Source: a phage
Sequence record: PV805638.1
Strand: one strand, 5' to 3'
DNA: 64,000 bases
Shown here: one piece after another, positions 6,207 through 13,746 of the stretch
Layout of the letters: the number at the start of each line of letters is the position of its first letter
How positions within the stretch are numbered: position 1 is the stretch's first letter
The notes under the pieces: generated by a model
Seen by the model: the letters and a program-made list of their open reading frames with translations, nothing else
What the model was told of the DNA's origin: nothing
The model's database searches: none
Made by a program: the position numbers and the translations under genes

Positions 6207-6359
6207 TAATCGTGCAGTAGAAGACTTCTATGCTCATAGAGAGTTGGTACTGAAACGTATCAATGAAGCAATGAAACGTGAAGCAGAAGCTAAAGCTAAA
6301 CGTAACCGTAAATAAATCCAAATGCGAGCCAAGTGGCTCAAGACGCTAAGGAATACAAA

Positions 6360-6791
6360 ATGCAACTGTTAACTGCCCGTGAATACCTGAAAGTAGATAT
6401 CGCTAACAACTATGGCTTAGACAAGAAGACATGGGATGAGCGTATTAGCTGGTTCGATGAGAATGAAGCTAACCTGCTTAATCTGGTAGATGAAGCTGAA
6501 GAATCTGCATTGTTCTATGCTGGTGTAAACGCATGGAAAGATATGAAAGCCGGTAAGCCTATCGGTTATGCTGTAGCTCTGGATGCTACATCATCCGGCT
6601 TACAGCTACTGGCTTGCCTGACTGGTGACCGTTCTGCTGCTGAACTGTGTAACGTAGTTAACTACATGGGGGAGAATGGTAAGCCATTACGTCGTGATGC
6701 TTATACAGTTATCTATCACAAGATGCTGGACATCCTTGGTGAAGCATCTCGTATTAAACGTAGTGATACTAAGCAGGCCGTTAACCTATAA
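6360..6791 (+). CDS. phage RNA polymerase II large subunit (RNAP2), 5' exon / N-terminal fragment
   Basis: DATSSGLQLLACLTGD resembles T7 RNAP motif A (DGSCSGIQH); ORF stops inside the motif-B region (SDTKQAVNL*). Confidence 0.6.
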   Translation: MQLLTAREYLKVDIANNYGLDKKTWDERISWFDENEANLLNLVDEAEESALFYAGVNAWKDMKAGKPIGYAVALDATSSGLQLLACLTGDRSAAELCNVVNYMGENGKPLRRDAYTVIYHKMLDILGEASRIKRSDTKQAVNL

Positions 6792-7596
6792 GTCATGGCG
6801 GCCTTTAAACCGGGTGAACTCATGGAACATCCCTAGTGGACAATCATGAGCCAAGTTGGTAACGTAGAAAGCTCAATAAGGAGCATTCTATGTCAGAATT
6901 CAAAACGTGCAGTCGATGTAAAGAATTACTTCCTATCGAAGTATTCCCAGAGACTAAAAAAGCAATCACAGGACTCAAGACTAATTACGAGAATCGTTGC
7001 AGACCTTGCAAGGCTGCTGCTGCTCGTGAATGGCGTAAAAATAATCCCGGTTACACTGGAACTGGGATTCTTAAGGCAATACCGGAAGAGCATCGTAAAT
7101 GGTATTCAGCAGTCTCACTTAGACTGAGAGATGCAAAGAGCAGATGTAAAAAGCTCGGTAAGCCTATGCCTGATTGCACAGTAGAGTACTTATTTGAAAT
7201 CCTTAAATCACAGGAATTCAAATGTGCTTTAACTGGTGCAACCTTAGTAATTGAGTCGGGACATCCCTTGTGTCTATCATTAGACCAGATAGAGCCAAGC
7301 AAGGGATATAGTATTGATAATGTTCAATGGTTAGCTTGGTGTGTAAACCGAGCAAAGGGTGACCTTTCTACCAATGACTTTATTGATATGTGTGATGCTG
7401 TTTTGAATAACCAAAAGGTGCAGAGACTATCGAAAAGCAGCGTAAGCTGAACTTAGTAGAGTAGGCCCAAGTGGGTCGAAGCGCCCGGCTAGACTAATAG
7501 TCTAGATGATATAGTCCGAACTCACTGGTAACAGTGAGATGCAGGTAAAGCTGCTGGGGAAGATTAACGACCTTCCTTGAACATAATGTATGACTG
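6790..7596 (+). mobile_element. putative group I intron (about 0.8 kb) with HNH homing endonuclease ORF, interrupting RNAP2
   Basis: RNAP2 homology stops at 6791 and resumes at about 7590 in motif B; no RBS before the 3' part; GNRA-capped hairpin 7521..7538 and other hairpins; boundaries are approximate (+/-10 nt). Confidence 0.45.
6890..7450 (+). CDS. HNH homing endonuclease
   Basis: 186 aa; strong AAGGAG RBS; N-terminal Cys cluster and SLDQIEPSKGYSIDNVQWLAWCVNRAKGD HNH-type motif. Confidence 0.7.
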   Translation: MSEFKTCSRCKELLPIEVFPETKKAITGLKTNYENRCRPCKAAAAREWRKNNPGYTGTGILKAIPEEHRKWYSAVSLRLRDAKSRCKKLGKPMPDCTVEYLFEILKSQEFKCALTGATLVIESGHPLCLSLDQIEPSKGYSIDNVQWLAWCVNRAKGDLSTNDFIDMCDAVLNNQKVQRLSKSSVS

Positions 7597-8384
7597 CATT
7601 CTATGGTTCAGAAGCCAAGCCTAAAGAAGTATTCGGTGAAGGTATTCGTCTCAAGACTTTTGAGAATGTAATGGAAACAGTTGCTAGTGGACCTTGGGCA
7701 CTGAACAAGTTCTTACTGCAATGTGGTAACCCGGATGCTAGCCGTTACGTATGGGTACTGCCTGACAATTTCCATGCTGTCATTAAGGTCATGGTTCCAG
7801 AGGTACAGACCGTTAACTTCTTAGGTAAGCCATTCGACATCACTCGTATGGTTCAGGGTACTGAAGATAAGACTCGTATGCTCTCTGCTAACATCACCCA
7901 CTCTATTGATGGAATGGTGGTACGTGAGATGCTGCGTCGCTGTAACTTCGACATGAACCAGGTGAACTATATTAAGTCCCTCTGTGAAGGGACCAGTGAG
8001 TATATGCTGGGTACTAGCGAAAACTACGACATGGTTAGTCAACTGTGGCATAACTATGAGAAATCAGGATTCCTGTCTACCCGTATCTTTGATTATCTGG
8101 ATTCTGACTCAATTAAACTGGTTGATACAGATGTAATCATGGCTATGCTTAATACCATGCCTAAGAAACCATTCCCTGTAATGACCGTACATGACTGCTT
8201 CCGTTGTCATCCTAACTATGGCAATGACTTGCGTCGTCAGTACAATCAGATTCTGTCTGACATTGCTAAGAGTGACCTACTGGGCTTCATCCTGTCTCAG
8301 GTACTGGGGCAAGAGTTCTCTGCTGGTAAGCTGGATGACAGCCTCTGGCAGGACATCCTTGAAACGGATTATGCATTAAGTTAA
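7590..8384 (+). CDS. phage RNA polymerase II large subunit (RNAP2), 3' exon / C-terminal fragment
   Basis: AFYGSEAKPKE resembles T7 motif B (LAYGSKEFG); TVHDCFRCHP resembles motif C (HDSFGT); exon 1 + exon 2 is about 410 aa. Confidence 0.6.
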   Translation: MTAFYGSEAKPKEVFGEGIRLKTFENVMETVASGPWALNKFLLQCGNPDASRYVWVLPDNFHAVIKVMVPEVQTVNFLGKPFDITRMVQGTEDKTRMLSANITHSIDGMVVREMLRRCNFDMNQVNYIKSLCEGTSEYMLGTSENYDMVSQLWHNYEKSGFLSTRIFDYLDSDSIKLVDTDVIMAMLNTMPKKPFPVMTVHDCFRCHPNYGNDLRRQYNQILSDIAKSDLLGFILSQVLGQEFSAGKLDDSLWQDILETDYALS

Positions 8385-9572: not shown

Positions 9573-9602
9573 GACCTCCCTATTAAAGGGAGGTCTTTTT
9601 TT
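9573..9602 (+). terminator. rho-independent terminator
   Basis: 9-bp hairpin GACCTCCCT-ATTAA-AGGGAGGTC followed by TTTTTTT. Confidence 0.7.
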
Positions 9603-9998: not shown

Positions 9999-10325
9999 AT
10001 GAAAACTTTAATTGCTGTTGTTCTTGTAGCTCTATCAGTTCTGTCATTCGGTGCTCAGGCATCTAGTCGTGCAACCTTATTGGAAGCTGCTGCTGATTAC
10101 AAAGCCAATAATGCAAACTTTGTGAACCAGGGTTACTTCATGGGCATGGTTACTATGGGTGTGGAAGCAGGAAAGAATTGTGTACCTGACGGTATAAAAT
10201 TAGGGCACATTTTTGACAGAGTGGCCTCTATTATTCTGTATGACCGAAAGGTTAATGCAGTAAAAGTACCATCAGACATGGTTCTGTTAGCGATTAATAC
10301 AGCCTATCCCTGCGTTAAATCTTAA
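9999..10325 (+). CDS. secreted/periplasmic protein (signal peptide, likely cleavage after AQA)
   Basis: N-terminal MKTLIAVVLVALSVLSFGAQA signal-peptide pattern; 2 Cys in mature part. Confidence 0.5.
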   Translation: MKTLIAVVLVALSVLSFGAQASSRATLLEAAADYKANNANFVNQGYFMGMVTMGVEAGKNCVPDGIKLGHIFDRVASIILYDRKVNAVKVPSDMVLLAINTAYPCVKS

Positions 10326-10359
10326 TTAGTAATTCCATTAACTTTAGGAGAGTAAGTAA

Positions 10360-11412
10360 ATGGCGAGCATTGACTCCTTGACTGTATGTAATACACGTCA
10401 AGCCCGTAACTTTATTATCCGTGCCTTGCAAGCAGGTAACGTACCGTTCCTGACTTCATCACCGGGTATGGGTAAGTCTGCAATTATTCGTTCTATTGCA
10501 GAAGAATTTGGTATGAAGCTGATTGACCATCGTTTGTCTACTTCTGCCCCGGAAGACTTATCTGGTCTACCATTCCGTAATGGTGACCGTGCAGAGTTTA
10601 TCCCTTTCGCTGACTTATTCCCTATCGAGGGTGACGAAGTACCAGAAGGTTATAATGGCTGGCTCCTGTTCCTTGATGAGTTCAACTCAGCTAAAAAGGA
10701 AGTAGTAGCTGCTGCATACAAACTGATTCTAGACCGTATGACCGGACAGAAAAAACTTCACCCTAATGTGATGATTATCTGTGCCGGTAACAAAGCCACT
10801 GACCGAGCCATAGTTAACCCGCTGGGTACTGCAATGCAGTCCCGTGTTGTCCACTTCGAAATGGAACTCGACTTCGACATCTTTGTTGAAGACGTAATGA
10901 TTCCTCAAGAATGGGATGAGCGTCTGGTTGCATTCTTACATGCTAACCCTGGTTATCTGCATGACTTCGACCCTGCCCACAAGAACAAAACATTCTGTTG
11001 CCCTCGTACCTGGGACTTTGTTAACAAAGACCTCAAGAACCGACCAGAAGGTGCTTTGCCTGATGAAGATTCTATCTACTATGCTGGACACGTTACTGCC
11101 GGTAAAGCTACAGAGTTTGTTCAGTTCACTCAGGTATACAATCGTATGATTACGATTGAGAAGGTAGTCAAAGACCCATTAGGCTGTGCACTACCGGAAG
11201 ATAATAACCTGTGTTGGGCTACTGTTAACCATCTGGCTAACAAAACTACTGAAGATAACTTCGCTGATGTTCTTCAGTACATTGAACGCTTTAAAACGTT
11301 CACCCATAAGATTCTGTACTTCCGTACAGTAGGCAAAGCATTACCAGAAATTCAGGCTACCCCTGAATGGCGTAAGGCTGCTGCCAATATCTCTCGTTAC
11401 ATTCACGGATAA
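10360..11412 (+). CDS. MoxR-like AAA+ ATPase
   Basis: Walker A SPGMGKS, Walker B LLFLDEFN, MoxR-type sensor region; AGGAGA RBS. Confidence 0.7.
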   Translation: MASIDSLTVCNTRQARNFIIRALQAGNVPFLTSSPGMGKSAIIRSIAEEFGMKLIDHRLSTSAPEDLSGLPFRNGDRAEFIPFADLFPIEGDEVPEGYNGWLLFLDEFNSAKKEVVAAAYKLILDRMTGQKKLHPNVMIICAGNKATDRAIVNPLGTAMQSRVVHFEMELDFDIFVEDVMIPQEWDERLVAFLHANPGYLHDFDPAHKNKTFCCPRTWDFVNKDLKNRPEGALPDEDSIYYAGHVTAGKATEFVQFTQVYNRMITIEKVVKDPLGCALPEDNNLCWATVNHLANKTTEDNFADVLQYIERFKTFTHKILYFRTVGKALPEIQATPEWRKAAANISRYIHG

Positions 11413-11419
11413 TCACAAC

Positions 11420-12595
11420 ATGAACCAGATACCTCAGCACACACTTAGTGATGAACAACTCATGCGTGAGTATGACCGTATTCAGGCCCAAGCCTTCCTA
11501 GGCAAGTCTGCTGCGTTTTTTGGTTCATTGCTGTGTAGTCTTAAGTTCTCATGGAAACGTGAGGGTTGTCCCACTGCATGTACCGATGGGATAGAACTCC
11601 ATTTCAACCCTGACTTCTTTATCTGGATGTGCCCTGATGCAAGAGAAACAGTGCTAATGCACGAACTCTGGCATGTGGCATATCTGCATGGCATCCGTTG
11701 TGGAAGCCGTGACCCGGAAGTCTGGAACCAGGCATGTGACCACTTCATTAACCTTCAGTTAGAAGAAGATGGTTACAAGTTCACTGGTATCGACGAAGGT
11801 ATTTGCAAAGACCCTCAATATAAAGGATGGGTCGAAGAAGACATCTACGATGACCTGATGAAGAACCCTCAGAAAAGGCAGAAGCCGTCGGGGGGAGCTG
11901 GAGCAAGTCTTGCTGGCGACATGAAAGCCCCCTCTTCGGGGCAGTCCCAGGGTGCTGTTGTCAACAACGTAGTGCGTGCAATGCAAAGCCAGAAGATGGC
12001 TGGTGGAACAATGCCCGGTAAAGGTGCTGGTCGTATGGAAGAGGTTATTACCCAATTCCTTAAACCAGTAGTTCCATGGCAGGAAGTTCTGATGAACTTC
12101 TTTACCGACATTGATGACACACATTATACGTGGGCCAGACCTAACCGTCGCTTCACTGACGTCTATCTACCTTCTCTGGAAGATGATGAAGGACGCTTAC
12201 GACACTTAGCCTACTTTGAGGATGTATCCGGTTCTATTAGTAGTGCTGACTCTCTGCGTTTTAACTCAGAGGTTGCCTACGTTAAGAGCCAGTTCAATCC
12301 TAAGAAGATGACCCTAATTACCTTCGACGATATTATCCAAGAAGAAATAGACATCACTGAAGAAGATACTTTTGAAGAGATTAAGATTACTGGTCGTGGT
12401 GGTACAAACCTTGAACCAGTGCGCGAATGGATTATTAAGAATAAACCAACCGCTGCAATCATATTCTCCGATATGTATGTTCGTCCAATGGAAGAATTAC
12501 CATTTGATATCCCTATCATCTGGTGTGTTCTGAATAATCCTAATGCTACCGTACCTTTCGGGGAGGTAGTTCATATCCCTAAAGGAATGAAATAA
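11420..12595 (+). CDS. vWA-domain protein with N-terminal putative metallopeptidase (HExxH) domain (DUF2201-like)
   Basis: MHELWH HExxH motif; DVSGSISS MIDAS-like DxSxS; directly downstream of the MoxR ATPase. Confidence 0.6.
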   Translation: MNQIPQHTLSDEQLMREYDRIQAQAFLGKSAAFFGSLLCSLKFSWKREGCPTACTDGIELHFNPDFFIWMCPDARETVLMHELWHVAYLHGIRCGSRDPEVWNQACDHFINLQLEEDGYKFTGIDEGICKDPQYKGWVEEDIYDDLMKNPQKRQKPSGGAGASLAGDMKAPSSGQSQGAVVNNVVRAMQSQKMAGGTMPGKGAGRMEEVITQFLKPVVPWQEVLMNFFTDIDDTHYTWARPNRRFTDVYLPSLEDDEGRLRHLAYFEDVSGSISSADSLRFNSEVAYVKSQFNPKKMTLITFDDIIQEEIDITEEDTFEEIKITGRGGTNLEPVREWIIKNKPTAAIIFSDMYVRPMEELPFDIPIIWCVLNNPNATVPFGEVVHIPKGMK

Positions 12596-13101
12596 TGATT
12601 GTTAATGGTAATTCTCTATACCGTTCATCTCAATTGCTGGATGTCCCAGACCGTAAAGTATCCGAGCATGGTGTAAGCTATGGATTAGGTGAAGCTGGTT
12701 ATGATATTCGTATCAAACAAGACATTACCTTCTATCGCTTATTTGGATTGATTCCAATGGTGAAAATCGCTGATGGAAAACAAGTATCACGCCACTTCGG
12801 TAAGTTTGCATTGGCTTCAGCAATTGAGAAATTCAACATGTCCCCGTCCTGTGTAGCTATCGTTCACGATAAGTCCACATGGGCAAGACGTGCATTATCT
12901 GTGTTCAATACCGTAATAGAACCAGGATGGAAAGGGTATCTTACCCTCGAACTGGTCTATCATGGTCGTAAGAAACTGCATATCCCGGCTGGTGCTGGGA
13001 TAGCTCAAGTATTATTTCATCTGGTTCAAGAGCCTGCTAACTACAATGGCAAGTATCAGAACCAGGAAAACAAACCAGTTGCTGCAAGAAGCAGCAAATA
13101 A
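12595..13101 (+). CDS. dCTP deaminase / dUTPase-superfamily protein
   Basis: DPGWKGYLTLELVYHG ... IPAGAGIAQVLF ... YNGKYQNQ resembles dCTP deaminase conserved blocks. Confidence 0.65.
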   Translation: MIVNGNSLYRSSQLLDVPDRKVSEHGVSYGLGEAGYDIRIKQDITFYRLFGLIPMVKIADGKQVSRHFGKFALASAIEKFNMSPSCVAIVHDKSTWARRALSVFNTVIEPGWKGYLTLELVYHGRKKLHIPAGAGIAQVLFHLVQEPANYNGKYQNQENKPVAARSSK

Positions 13102-13110
13102 GGAAACAAC

Positions 13111-13311
13111 ATGTCAGTATTTCAAGTATCTCCTGTTGACAGTACCCAACGTAAAACTATTGTTGCAACTAACGTAGTAGATGTAGATGAAACCCCGACT
13201 GGTGCTGTAATTCATCTGATTGATGGACGAACTGTAACTGTAAAAGAAAGCTATCGTTCAGTACGTGGATATGTTCGTAAAGCTTTGACTGCTGACTCTG
13301 ACGCAGAGTAA
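13111..13311 (+). CDS. hypothetical protein
   Basis: 66 aa, AAGGAAA RBS. Confidence 0.45.
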   Translation: MSVFQVSPVDSTQRKTIVATNVVDVDETPTGAVIHLIDGRTVTVKESYRSVRGYVRKALTADSDAE

Positions 13312-13645: not shown

Positions 13646-13720
13646 CTAACCTAAGCATCATTGTATAGTGGTGCTTGTGGAAGTTACTTCCAGCTCATTA
13701 CTTATCCATCTCCTAATCCA

Positions 13721-13746
13721 AGCCCACCTAACCCGTGGGCTTTTTT
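13721..13746 (+). terminator. rho-independent terminator
   Basis: AGCCCAC...GTGGGCT hairpin followed by TTTTTT. Confidence 0.65.

Follow-up and report, generated by a model that had tools for sequence, protein, structure and literature searches.

Two adjacent genes of an N4-like phage, one for an AAA+ ATPase and the other for a protein joining a putative metallopeptidase domain to a VWA domain, raise the question of what such a pair does for the virus and at which stage of infection. The genes occupy positions 10,360 to 12,595 of a 64,000-nucleotide stretch of phage DNA (sequence record PV805638.1), which as a whole is called the window below. Judged by nucleotide comparison and genome layout, the source phage is an N4-like podophage of Escherichia coli (Gamaleyavirus, G7C-like), and the two genes are orthologues of gp24 and gp25 of phages N4 and G7C; these names are used here. 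Both belong to the 14 core genes of N4-like phages (PMC4193335). In papers on these phages gp24 appears as unknown or 'putative ATPase', and gp25 has the entry 'vWFA domain' with function unknown (PMC4193335, PMC2784036), in agreement with the first-pass annotation of this DNA, which had called the role in the phage cycle not established. The pair is beyond chance, and it is already known, since databases contain annotated phage genes with 97-99% identity to these two and the architecture is in print.

Our answer, given tentatively, is that gp24 and gp25 form an ATP-driven remodeller or protease guided by a metal ion-dependent adhesion site (MIDAS), and that they serve the intracellular establishment and replication (middle) phase rather than acting as a virion-assembly chaperone. 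The domain-level parts of this answer are much more certain than the purpose of the pair. For two core genes, knowledge of the substrate would close a genuine gap in the picture of the N4 infection cycle. The family spans lytic phages, plasmids and integrative elements, and the substrate might reveal a common step in the establishment of incoming mobile DNA.

The ATPase gp24 and its partner gp25

Both open reading frames (ORFs) exist exactly as first annotated, with 7 nt between them (11413-11419), and the motif coordinates were confirmed on the DNA. In the list below, invariance in gp24 refers to an alignment of 39 homologues and in gp25 to one of 43, both at ~50% identity; separate alignments included the relatives from plasmids and integrative and conjugative elements (ICEs), which in the case of gp25 are 29-30% identical. 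Strands and helices of gp24 are those of the AlphaFold2 (AF2) model, the strands being taken from DSSP.

10360..11412, + strand: gp24 orthologue, AAA+ ATPase assigned to the Midasin/MoxR (AAA_5) branch, 350 aa (ORF list)
10456..10479, + strand: Walker A (P-loop) SSPGMGKS, residues 33-40; G38, K39 and S40 invariant
10531..10572, + strand: conserved loop RLSTSAPEDLSGLP, located between strands 2 and 3 at the position of the helix-2 insert
10663..10680, + strand: Walker B LLFLDE, residues 102-107; D106 and E107 invariant among N4-like homologues
10783..10851, + strand: sensor-1 N144 and arginine finger R162, the latter just ahead of strand 5; invariant
11005..11007, + strand: R216 of the helical lid domain, where helix 215-226 begins, a candidate sensor-2 arginine; invariant
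11420..12595, + strand: gp25 orthologue with DUF2201_N (zincin-like) and DUF2201 (VWA/MIDAS), 391 aa (ORF list, Pfam)
11468..12178, + strand: DUF2201_N 'putative metallopeptidase' domain (PF13203), residues 17-253, including a conserved, poorly modelled linker
11660..11674, + strand: predicted zinc-binding/catalytic motif HELWH (H81, E82, H85); invariant
11687-11689, + strand: H90, 3' of HELWH; conserved in at least 90%
11723..11740, + strand: WNQACD block, the intein insertion point in other members; A105 and D107 invariant, W102, N103 and C106 conserved in at least 90%
12125..12175, + strand: conserved segment YTWARPNRRFTDVYLPS, candidate ATPase-docking or regulatory element; W238, R243, R244, Y249 and P251 invariant, P241 and N242 conserved in at least 90%; predicted local distance difference test score (pLDDT) below 50 at residues 230-256
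12206..12577, + strand: VWA-like domain (DUF2201), residues 263-386
12221..12235, + strand: MIDAS motif DVSGS (D268, S270, G271, S272); invariant
12404-12406 and 12470-12472, + strand: T329 and D351, which complete the MIDAS; invariant

The Walker A and B motifs reported in the first-pass annotation are thus present with their key residues invariant, and together with sensor-1, the arginine finger and sensor-2 the whole set is intact in gp24; N144, R162 and R216 stay invariant when the plasmid and ICE ATPases are added. Five residues of the RLSTSAPEDLSGLP loop (P64, D66, G69, L70 and P71, in the pattern P-x-D-x-x-G-L-P) are invariant in the phage, plasmid and ICE ATPases, and the loop aligns with the D-x-x-D-L-x-G segment of the Midasin AAA modules. 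Among the Pfam models gp24 passes only the generic AAA model (PF00004, 28.5 bits). Its placement in the Midasin/dynein/MoxR (AAA_5) branch is nevertheless supported, because Midasin is the sole relative of the single gp24 sequence in the PDB (4e-5), because bacterial homologues score 25-29 bits with AAA_5, above its cutoff, and 24.5-27.1 bits with AAA_3 (cutoff 27, reached by one), and because the predicted structure has a hairpin before strand 4 and a candidate helix-2 insert. The family profile built from phage, plasmid and ICE sequences strengthens the match to Midasin to E=1e-27 over several AAA modules and detects NorQ, while the best classical AAA protein reaches only 1.6e-7. NorQ and CbbQ are among the closest solved structures, and the nearest ones fall in the Midasin/dynein/MoxR clade. 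Two inserts are expected in this clade, a hairpin before strand 4 and an insert in helix 2. In the AF2 model short strands at residues 127 and 132-133, before the strand at 137-144, make up a pre-sensor-1 hairpin (pLDDT ~85), and residues 59-99 form a 40-residue segment with a small hairpin (72-73/77-78) instead of a regular helix 2; residues 63-80, inside this insert region, have pLDDT below 50. A clamp-loader-like replication ATPase was also considered and rejected, as the phrog_168 match is only 4.5e-6 and the profile and fold evidence leads to Midasin/MoxR.

The domains that the first-pass annotation had expected in gp25 on the basis of HELWH and a DxSxS motif are found by profile search, DUF2201_N with 8e-55 (186.8 bits, cutoff 23.2) and DUF2201 with 1.8e-34. 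The MIDAS is complete, as DxSxS is accompanied by the distal Thr and the distal Asp, all invariant. E140 is invariant as well, and HExxH, H90, D107, E140 and the MIDAS residues are also invariant when the plasmid and ICE relatives are added. The AF2 model (pLDDT 78) consists of two well-defined halves joined by poorly modelled residues 150-260. In the N-terminal half helices are followed by a three-stranded sheet, the HExxH helix and more helices, a predicted order compatible with a zincin. The assignment of gp25 as a putative zincin-type metallopeptidase is based on the Pfam family and the invariant HExxH. Fold searches match the VWA domain to the MoxR-partnered MIDAS domains of Midasin/Rea1, NorD and BchD, and with an ATPase of the Midasin/MoxR branch next to it the resemblance to MoxR-VWA systems proposed at first reading is borne out.

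Two members of the gp25 family contain inteins at one and the same site, between A105 and C106 (nt 11732-11737): P0364 (519 aa) and P0370 (701 aa), with a Vint/Hint mini-intein of ~140 aa and an Intein_splicing intein of ~310 aa. The junctions are the usual Cys...HN/Cys, and the two inteins are independent. Inteins favour conserved functional sites, and since they typically occupy such positions the WNxACD block is probably part of the active centre. The PHROG label of the family (phrog_1314), 'HNH endonuclease', has been copied into many phage and GenBank records, and it is rejected here, as Pfam finds no HNH domain in gp25. The mislabel probably derives from intein-bearing members or from neighbouring inserted HNH genes.

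Gene linkage and genomic settings

The phage collection has 815 records with gp24-like genes and 680 with gp25-like genes, and the two numbers run parallel genus by genus (112 and 112 for Pseudomonas, 17 and 17 for Achromobacter). Database phage proteins are 97-98% identical to gp25, and the pair keeps ~50% identity across phages whose hosts belong to three proteobacterial classes. The two proteins clearly work together, presumably in a physical complex.

Positions 10000-13200 are 92-97% identical at the nucleotide level to G7C and ~55 other records (Gamaleyavirus genomes). The layout of the window is N4-like: early and middle genes occupy the + strand to ~32 kb and are followed by the gene for a 3759-aa virion RNA polymerase (vRNAP) and the late genes on the - strand. 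The pair lies in a single unit flanked by terminator-like hairpins, the first of which has its counterpart in an annotated stem-loop at the matching place in the G7C record.

9573..9595, + strand: terminator-like hairpin ending the upstream gp17 unit, 5' boundary of the gp24/gp25 unit
12593..12597, + strand: TAATG, where the gp25 stop overlaps the start of the dCTP deaminase gene (gp26)
13720..13742, + strand: next terminator-like hairpin, probable 3' limit of the unit, which extends from gp17.1 to the Imm-like gene

The TAATG overlap suggests translational coupling of gp25 and the dCTP deaminase, and a ThyX gene follows 2 kb downstream of the pair. The unit also includes an Imm-like superinfection-immunity gene and a Rap1a/Tai4-like gene. 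The latter is directly 5' of gp24 (9999-10325, + strand; G7C gp17.3) and encodes 108 aa with a signal-peptide-like N-terminus; its match to Rap1a/Tai4, a type VI secretion immunity protein, is weak (19.5 bits, cutoff 27.7), and some records label it 'Tai4 protein'.

The wider family is very large. An exhaustive profile search with gp25 gave 21,847 cluster representatives, 15,028 of them at E<=1e-10, so that at 50% identity the family comprises ~22,000 clusters; scanning 185,579 species genomes with a degenerate pattern gave 563 relatives of gp25. A gp24-like ATPase gene adjoins the gp25-like gene on the same strand in ~70 of 80 fetched bacterial loci from many phyla. Genes of these loci were mapped by hidden Markov models, which replaced single-linkage clustering confounded by shadow ORFs of high-GC sequences. 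The usual bacterial form is a three-gene cassette of the ATPase (A), a 280-300-aa protein (X) and the VWA-peptidase (V). The third protein belongs to DUF3150 and is present in 57-58 of 79 loci; its gene is always co-directional with the other two, and 47 loci have the order A-X-V, four A-V-X and one X-A-V. A full-text literature search on DUF3150 returned a single paper mentioning it.

The settings point to mobile DNA. Relatives are borne by 101 plasmids, 48 of which are typed conjugative or mobilizable. On the conjugative plasmid pMTS2 (Cupriavidus) the cassette comes after a complete PRTRC system and before SbcCD-like genes. In a Terriglobus locus a PRTRC ThiF-family protein (269 bits, cutoff 145) and PRTRC protein E are encoded upstream, and RNase H and a Gp157-like gene downstream. 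VirB11- and VirB4-type genes are near the cassette in Paraburkholderia, the module lies beside Rad52 and VapBC on an integrase-bearing island, and on a 72-kb phage-like contig it is found among AntA, pRha and DnaB genes.

The ATPase-DUF3150-VWA cassette was seen in Acidobacteriota, Burkholderiales, Cloacimonadota, Chloroflexota, Bacteroidota and others (L017, L064, L086 and 50+ loci), repeatedly beside PRTRC systems or type IV secretion genes. Among the ATPases co-occurring with DUF3150, those of plasmid, island and phage-contig type have D-D instead of D-E in Walker B (residue 107). The bearers of D-D are Paraburkholderia, Cupriavidus, Cloacimonadales, Chitinophaga and contigs L082 and L084, whereas D-E is kept in the phage, Desulfobacterota and Terriglobus ATPases. 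Read from the motif, the exchange hints at altered hydrolysis in one ATPase subgroup.

Several further observations concern the surroundings of the pair in phages and phage-like elements. Two Mesorhizobium contigs of 153 kb and 727 kb (L089 8600-21053, and L003) contain an N4-like middle/replication module beside ordinary bacterial genes, with gp24-like and gp25-like genes, dCMP deaminase, ThyX, H-NS, a Dda-like helicase and PolA. The module could belong to an N4-like element that is integrated or cryptic, or it could be an assembly chimera; integration would be unexpected in a family of phages considered strictly lytic. Directly behind gp25, the E. coli phage has a gene for a dCTP deaminase of the DCD/dUTPase fold (12595-13101) and the Mesorhizobium element one for a dCMP deaminase of the cytidine-deaminase fold (L089 12667-13113), a non-orthologous replacement at the same position. 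In the Vequintavirus Escherichia phage CarlMeissner a 486-aa 'putative metallopeptidase' (L088 3935-5395), a protein of rV5-like phages, matches the gp25 N-domain only (residues 23-244); a 'MoxR ATPase' gene lies ~4 kb off on the other strand, and an adjoining 325-aa gene is labelled 'anti-sigma factor'.

The sites of HNH homing endonucleases differ between the near-identical genomes of the source phage and G7C: the HNH insert is inside gp16 in the former and between gp15 and gp16 in the latter. The gene for the RNAPII large subunit (N4 gp16 orthologue; 6333-8384, + strand) is interrupted by an insert of ~800 nt, with 6333-6791 corresponding to residues 1-141 of G7C gp16 (96% identity) and 7590-8384 to residues 142-405 (98%). 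The insert carries an HNH/EndoVII-like ORF (6890-7450). At 7199-7538 it also matches an Rfam group I intron over the full length, though below threshold (30.2 bits, E=1e-4; the gathering threshold is 50). A group I intron carrying a homing endonuclease is the probable explanation, a split gene the alternative.

What the pair may do

In the mechanism that we propose, gp24 would be an active AAA+ ATPase, most likely a hexameric ring, and gp25 its dedicated partner, adaptor and catalytic subunit in one. The C-terminal VWA domain of gp25 would use its MIDAS to hold a specific target protein by an acidic residue, ATP hydrolysis by gp24 would pull on or remodel the bound target, and the zincin-like N-domain, with HExxH and WNxACD, would most likely cut the target or a neighbouring chain. 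By analogy with other MoxR-VWA pairs, remodelling could expose the cleavage site or free the product. The pair, which shares a transcription unit with the dCTP deaminase and is produced during the middle phase, would serve the newly arrived mobile genome in its establishment, its replication or the take-over of the host. The intracellular phase is preferred because the module is found on plasmids and ICEs that have no virions and because its neighbours in phages are middle, replication and nucleotide-metabolism genes.

A bolder version, which we consider a long shot, would make the pair an 'arrival' tool of mobile DNA in N4-like and jumbo phages, conjugative plasmids and ICEs: an ATP-driven protease that strips a protein bound tightly or covalently to incoming or replicating DNA and in this way licenses replication. 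The relaxase on the transferred strand, the injected vRNAP or ejectosome, or a conserved host nucleoid, SSB-type (single-stranded DNA-binding) or repressor protein could be the target, and the tool could parallel Cdc48/p97 with the HExxH proteases Wss1/SPRTN of eukaryotes. The idea would agree with the DnaB, Rad52, RNase H and SbcCD neighbours, the core status in Schitoviridae, the host-independent distribution and the inteins in the active-site block.

Several points weigh against the proposal of an intracellular remodeller or protease. The MoxR-type label of the first-pass annotation stands by the Midasin profile match and the bacterial homologues but not by the Pfam models for gp24 itself, which scores 18.2-20.8 bits with AAA_5 (cutoff 22) and has no match to AAA_3, the core MoxR model. 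For the N-domain of gp25, both fold searches were filled by matches to the VWA half and so lend the zincin fold no structural support, PDB searches with the single sequence and with the family profile found no solved relative, and the third zinc ligand is represented by the candidates H90, D107 and E140 only. Most characterised MoxR-VWA pairs are chaperones for cofactor insertion or remodelling and not proteases. As to the setting, gp17, the gene of a Hoc-like virion or decoration protein, lies 0.8 kb upstream of the pair, and no DUF3150 homologue was detected in the window, so the function of the two forms may differ. Clear mobile-element markers within 6 kb were found in only 32 of 79 bacterial loci, belonging to two lineages. 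Pfam enrichment was flat, with no family shared among 142 neighbour ORFs of 22 diverse bacterial loci, where the markers RadC, DUF4138, T2SSE, Rad52 and ResIII are scattered. Finally, a literature search on DUF2201, DUF3150, N4 gp24/gp25 and Schitoviridae metallopeptidases found no functional study, and in papers on CRISPRi-ART and on phage transposon sequencing (Tn-seq) the mentions of 'gp25' refer to PTXU04 and PhiKZ, with no data on N4 gp24/gp25.

Virion morphogenesis is the sole published functional proposal. The pair would then be a chaperone and processing protease that folds or assembles capsid, tail or ejection proteins, with the peptidase trimming structural proteins. Iyer et al. (2021) described a MoxR/vWA pair with an N-terminal metallopeptidase in group 2.2 jumbo phages and proposed virion assembly and peptidolytic processing, citing the archaeal virus ATV as precedent (PMC7824862); the ATV proteins in question are p618 and p892 (PMC7824862, PMC7159879). 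The nearby gp17 gene would fit, a few roseophage virion proteins are encoded near gp24/gp25 homologues (PMC4193335), and the pair is core, as structural genes are. However, gp17 belongs to another transcription unit than the pair, and the late structural module is ~40 kb away on the opposite strand. gp24 and gp25 have been reported as middle transcripts in N4-like phages, and mass spectrometry of the virion proteins of N4-like roseophages found no homologue of either (PMC4193335). Homologous cassettes are also found where no virions are built, on conjugative plasmids and integrative islands, and these relatives undercut virion assembly as a general role. For the phage studied here we regard it as unlikely.

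An accessory conflict module, that is, an anti-defence device that breaks down or inactivates a protein of host immunity, or a device for superinfection exclusion, also seems improbable. MoxR-vWA ternary conflict systems with effectors, occasionally a metallopeptidase, fused to the vWA component have been published (Kaur et al. 2020; PMC7159879). The spread of the family over phages, plasmids and ICEs, its position next to PRTRC, itself a cassette linked with mobile elements, and the Imm-like and Rap1a/Tai4-like genes in the same phage unit can be read in this sense. Yet the third components that define such systems (VMAP, inactive STAND, FtsH-type ATPase, beta-propeller) were not found among the ORFs of the unit, the bacterial relatives have DUF3150 in their place, and the bpMoxR model reaches 16 bits on gp24 (cutoff 27). 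NCBIfam and PADLOC gave nothing significant for gp24 or gp25, so that the pair does not count among the catalogued defence systems. Genes for defence and counter-defence are as a rule variable accessories, whereas this pair is among only 14 core genes and keeps its ~50% identity across hosts of three classes.

Quite improbable is a non-proteolytic metallochaperone like NorQ-NorD, CoxD-CoxE, CbbQ-CbbO and the chelatases, which would insert metal or cofactor into, or reactivate, the adjacent nucleotide-metabolism enzymes as candidate partners, its HExxH holding or delivering metal without cutting peptides: the closest solved structures include NorQ, CbbQ, NorD and BchD, the deaminase overlap and the ThyX gene downstream would fit, a deaminase and ThyX come after the pair in the Mesorhizobium element too, and 1.6 kb separate a jumbo-phage relative from thymidylate synthase, but the plasmid and ICE cassettes are not beside such enzymes, the deaminase/ThyX synteny may reflect only conserved module order in one phage family, and the Glu of HExxH, the catalytic base of zincins and dispensable for mere metal binding, is invariant.

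Comparison with known systems

In the general model of MoxR-VWA systems capture of a peptide falls to the VWA domain, its remodelling and release to the ATPase (PMC7159879). Acidianus two-tailed virus (ATV) also encodes a MoxR-VWA couple, p618 (MoxR) and p892 (VWA), here likened by description only; no peptidase domain has been reported in it, and its role is in the tail development that this archaeal virus undergoes outside the cell. In NorQ-NorD, CbbQ-CbbO, RavA-ViaA and CoxD-CoxE the known roles are cofactor insertion or enzyme reactivation, and their VWA partners, unlike gp25, have no HExxH domain. Midasin/Rea1, the eukaryotic AAA_5 ATPase of ribosome assembly, is a single chain of 4,700-4,900 residues with six AAA modules and a C-terminal MIDAS. 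It differs from gp24/gp25 in having no peptidase and in removing assembly factors instead of cutting them.

Closer to the phage pair in architecture are the jumbo-phage proteins, which have the same domains as those of the source phage but are distant and longer (~470 aa); in Asteriusvirus the gp25-like protein is 22-26% and the gp24-like protein ~30% identical. The plasmid/ICE cassette, for example that of pMTS2, has an ATPase whose homology extends from end to end and takes in the P-x-D-x-x-G-L-P loop, and a homologous DUF2201_N and DUF2201 protein with the same invariant residues, encoded by co-directional, adjacent genes. It differs by the DUF3150 third gene, by the D-D Walker B of several ATPases and by identities of 25-30% to the phage proteins. 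What the present analysis adds to the published picture is the plasmid/ICE relatives that speak against virion assembly, this third partner, DUF3150, which defines the bacterial form, and the correction of the common family label 'HNH endonuclease' as wrong.

The nearest system is that of N4 and G7C themselves, to which the pair is orthologous, with 99% (gp24) and ~97% (gp25) identity to G7C. In RefSeq the G7C genes are labelled 'ATPase' and 'VWA-like domain-containing protein' and are cross-referenced to N4 gp24 and gp25. Gene order and neighbours are the same in G7C and in the source phage, with gp17 upstream and dCTP deaminase and ThyX downstream, and the two genomes differ within the pair by an HNH homing-endonuclease gene, gp24.1 (L001 7417-7893), which lies between gp24 and gp25 in G7C where the source phage has the 7-nt gap.

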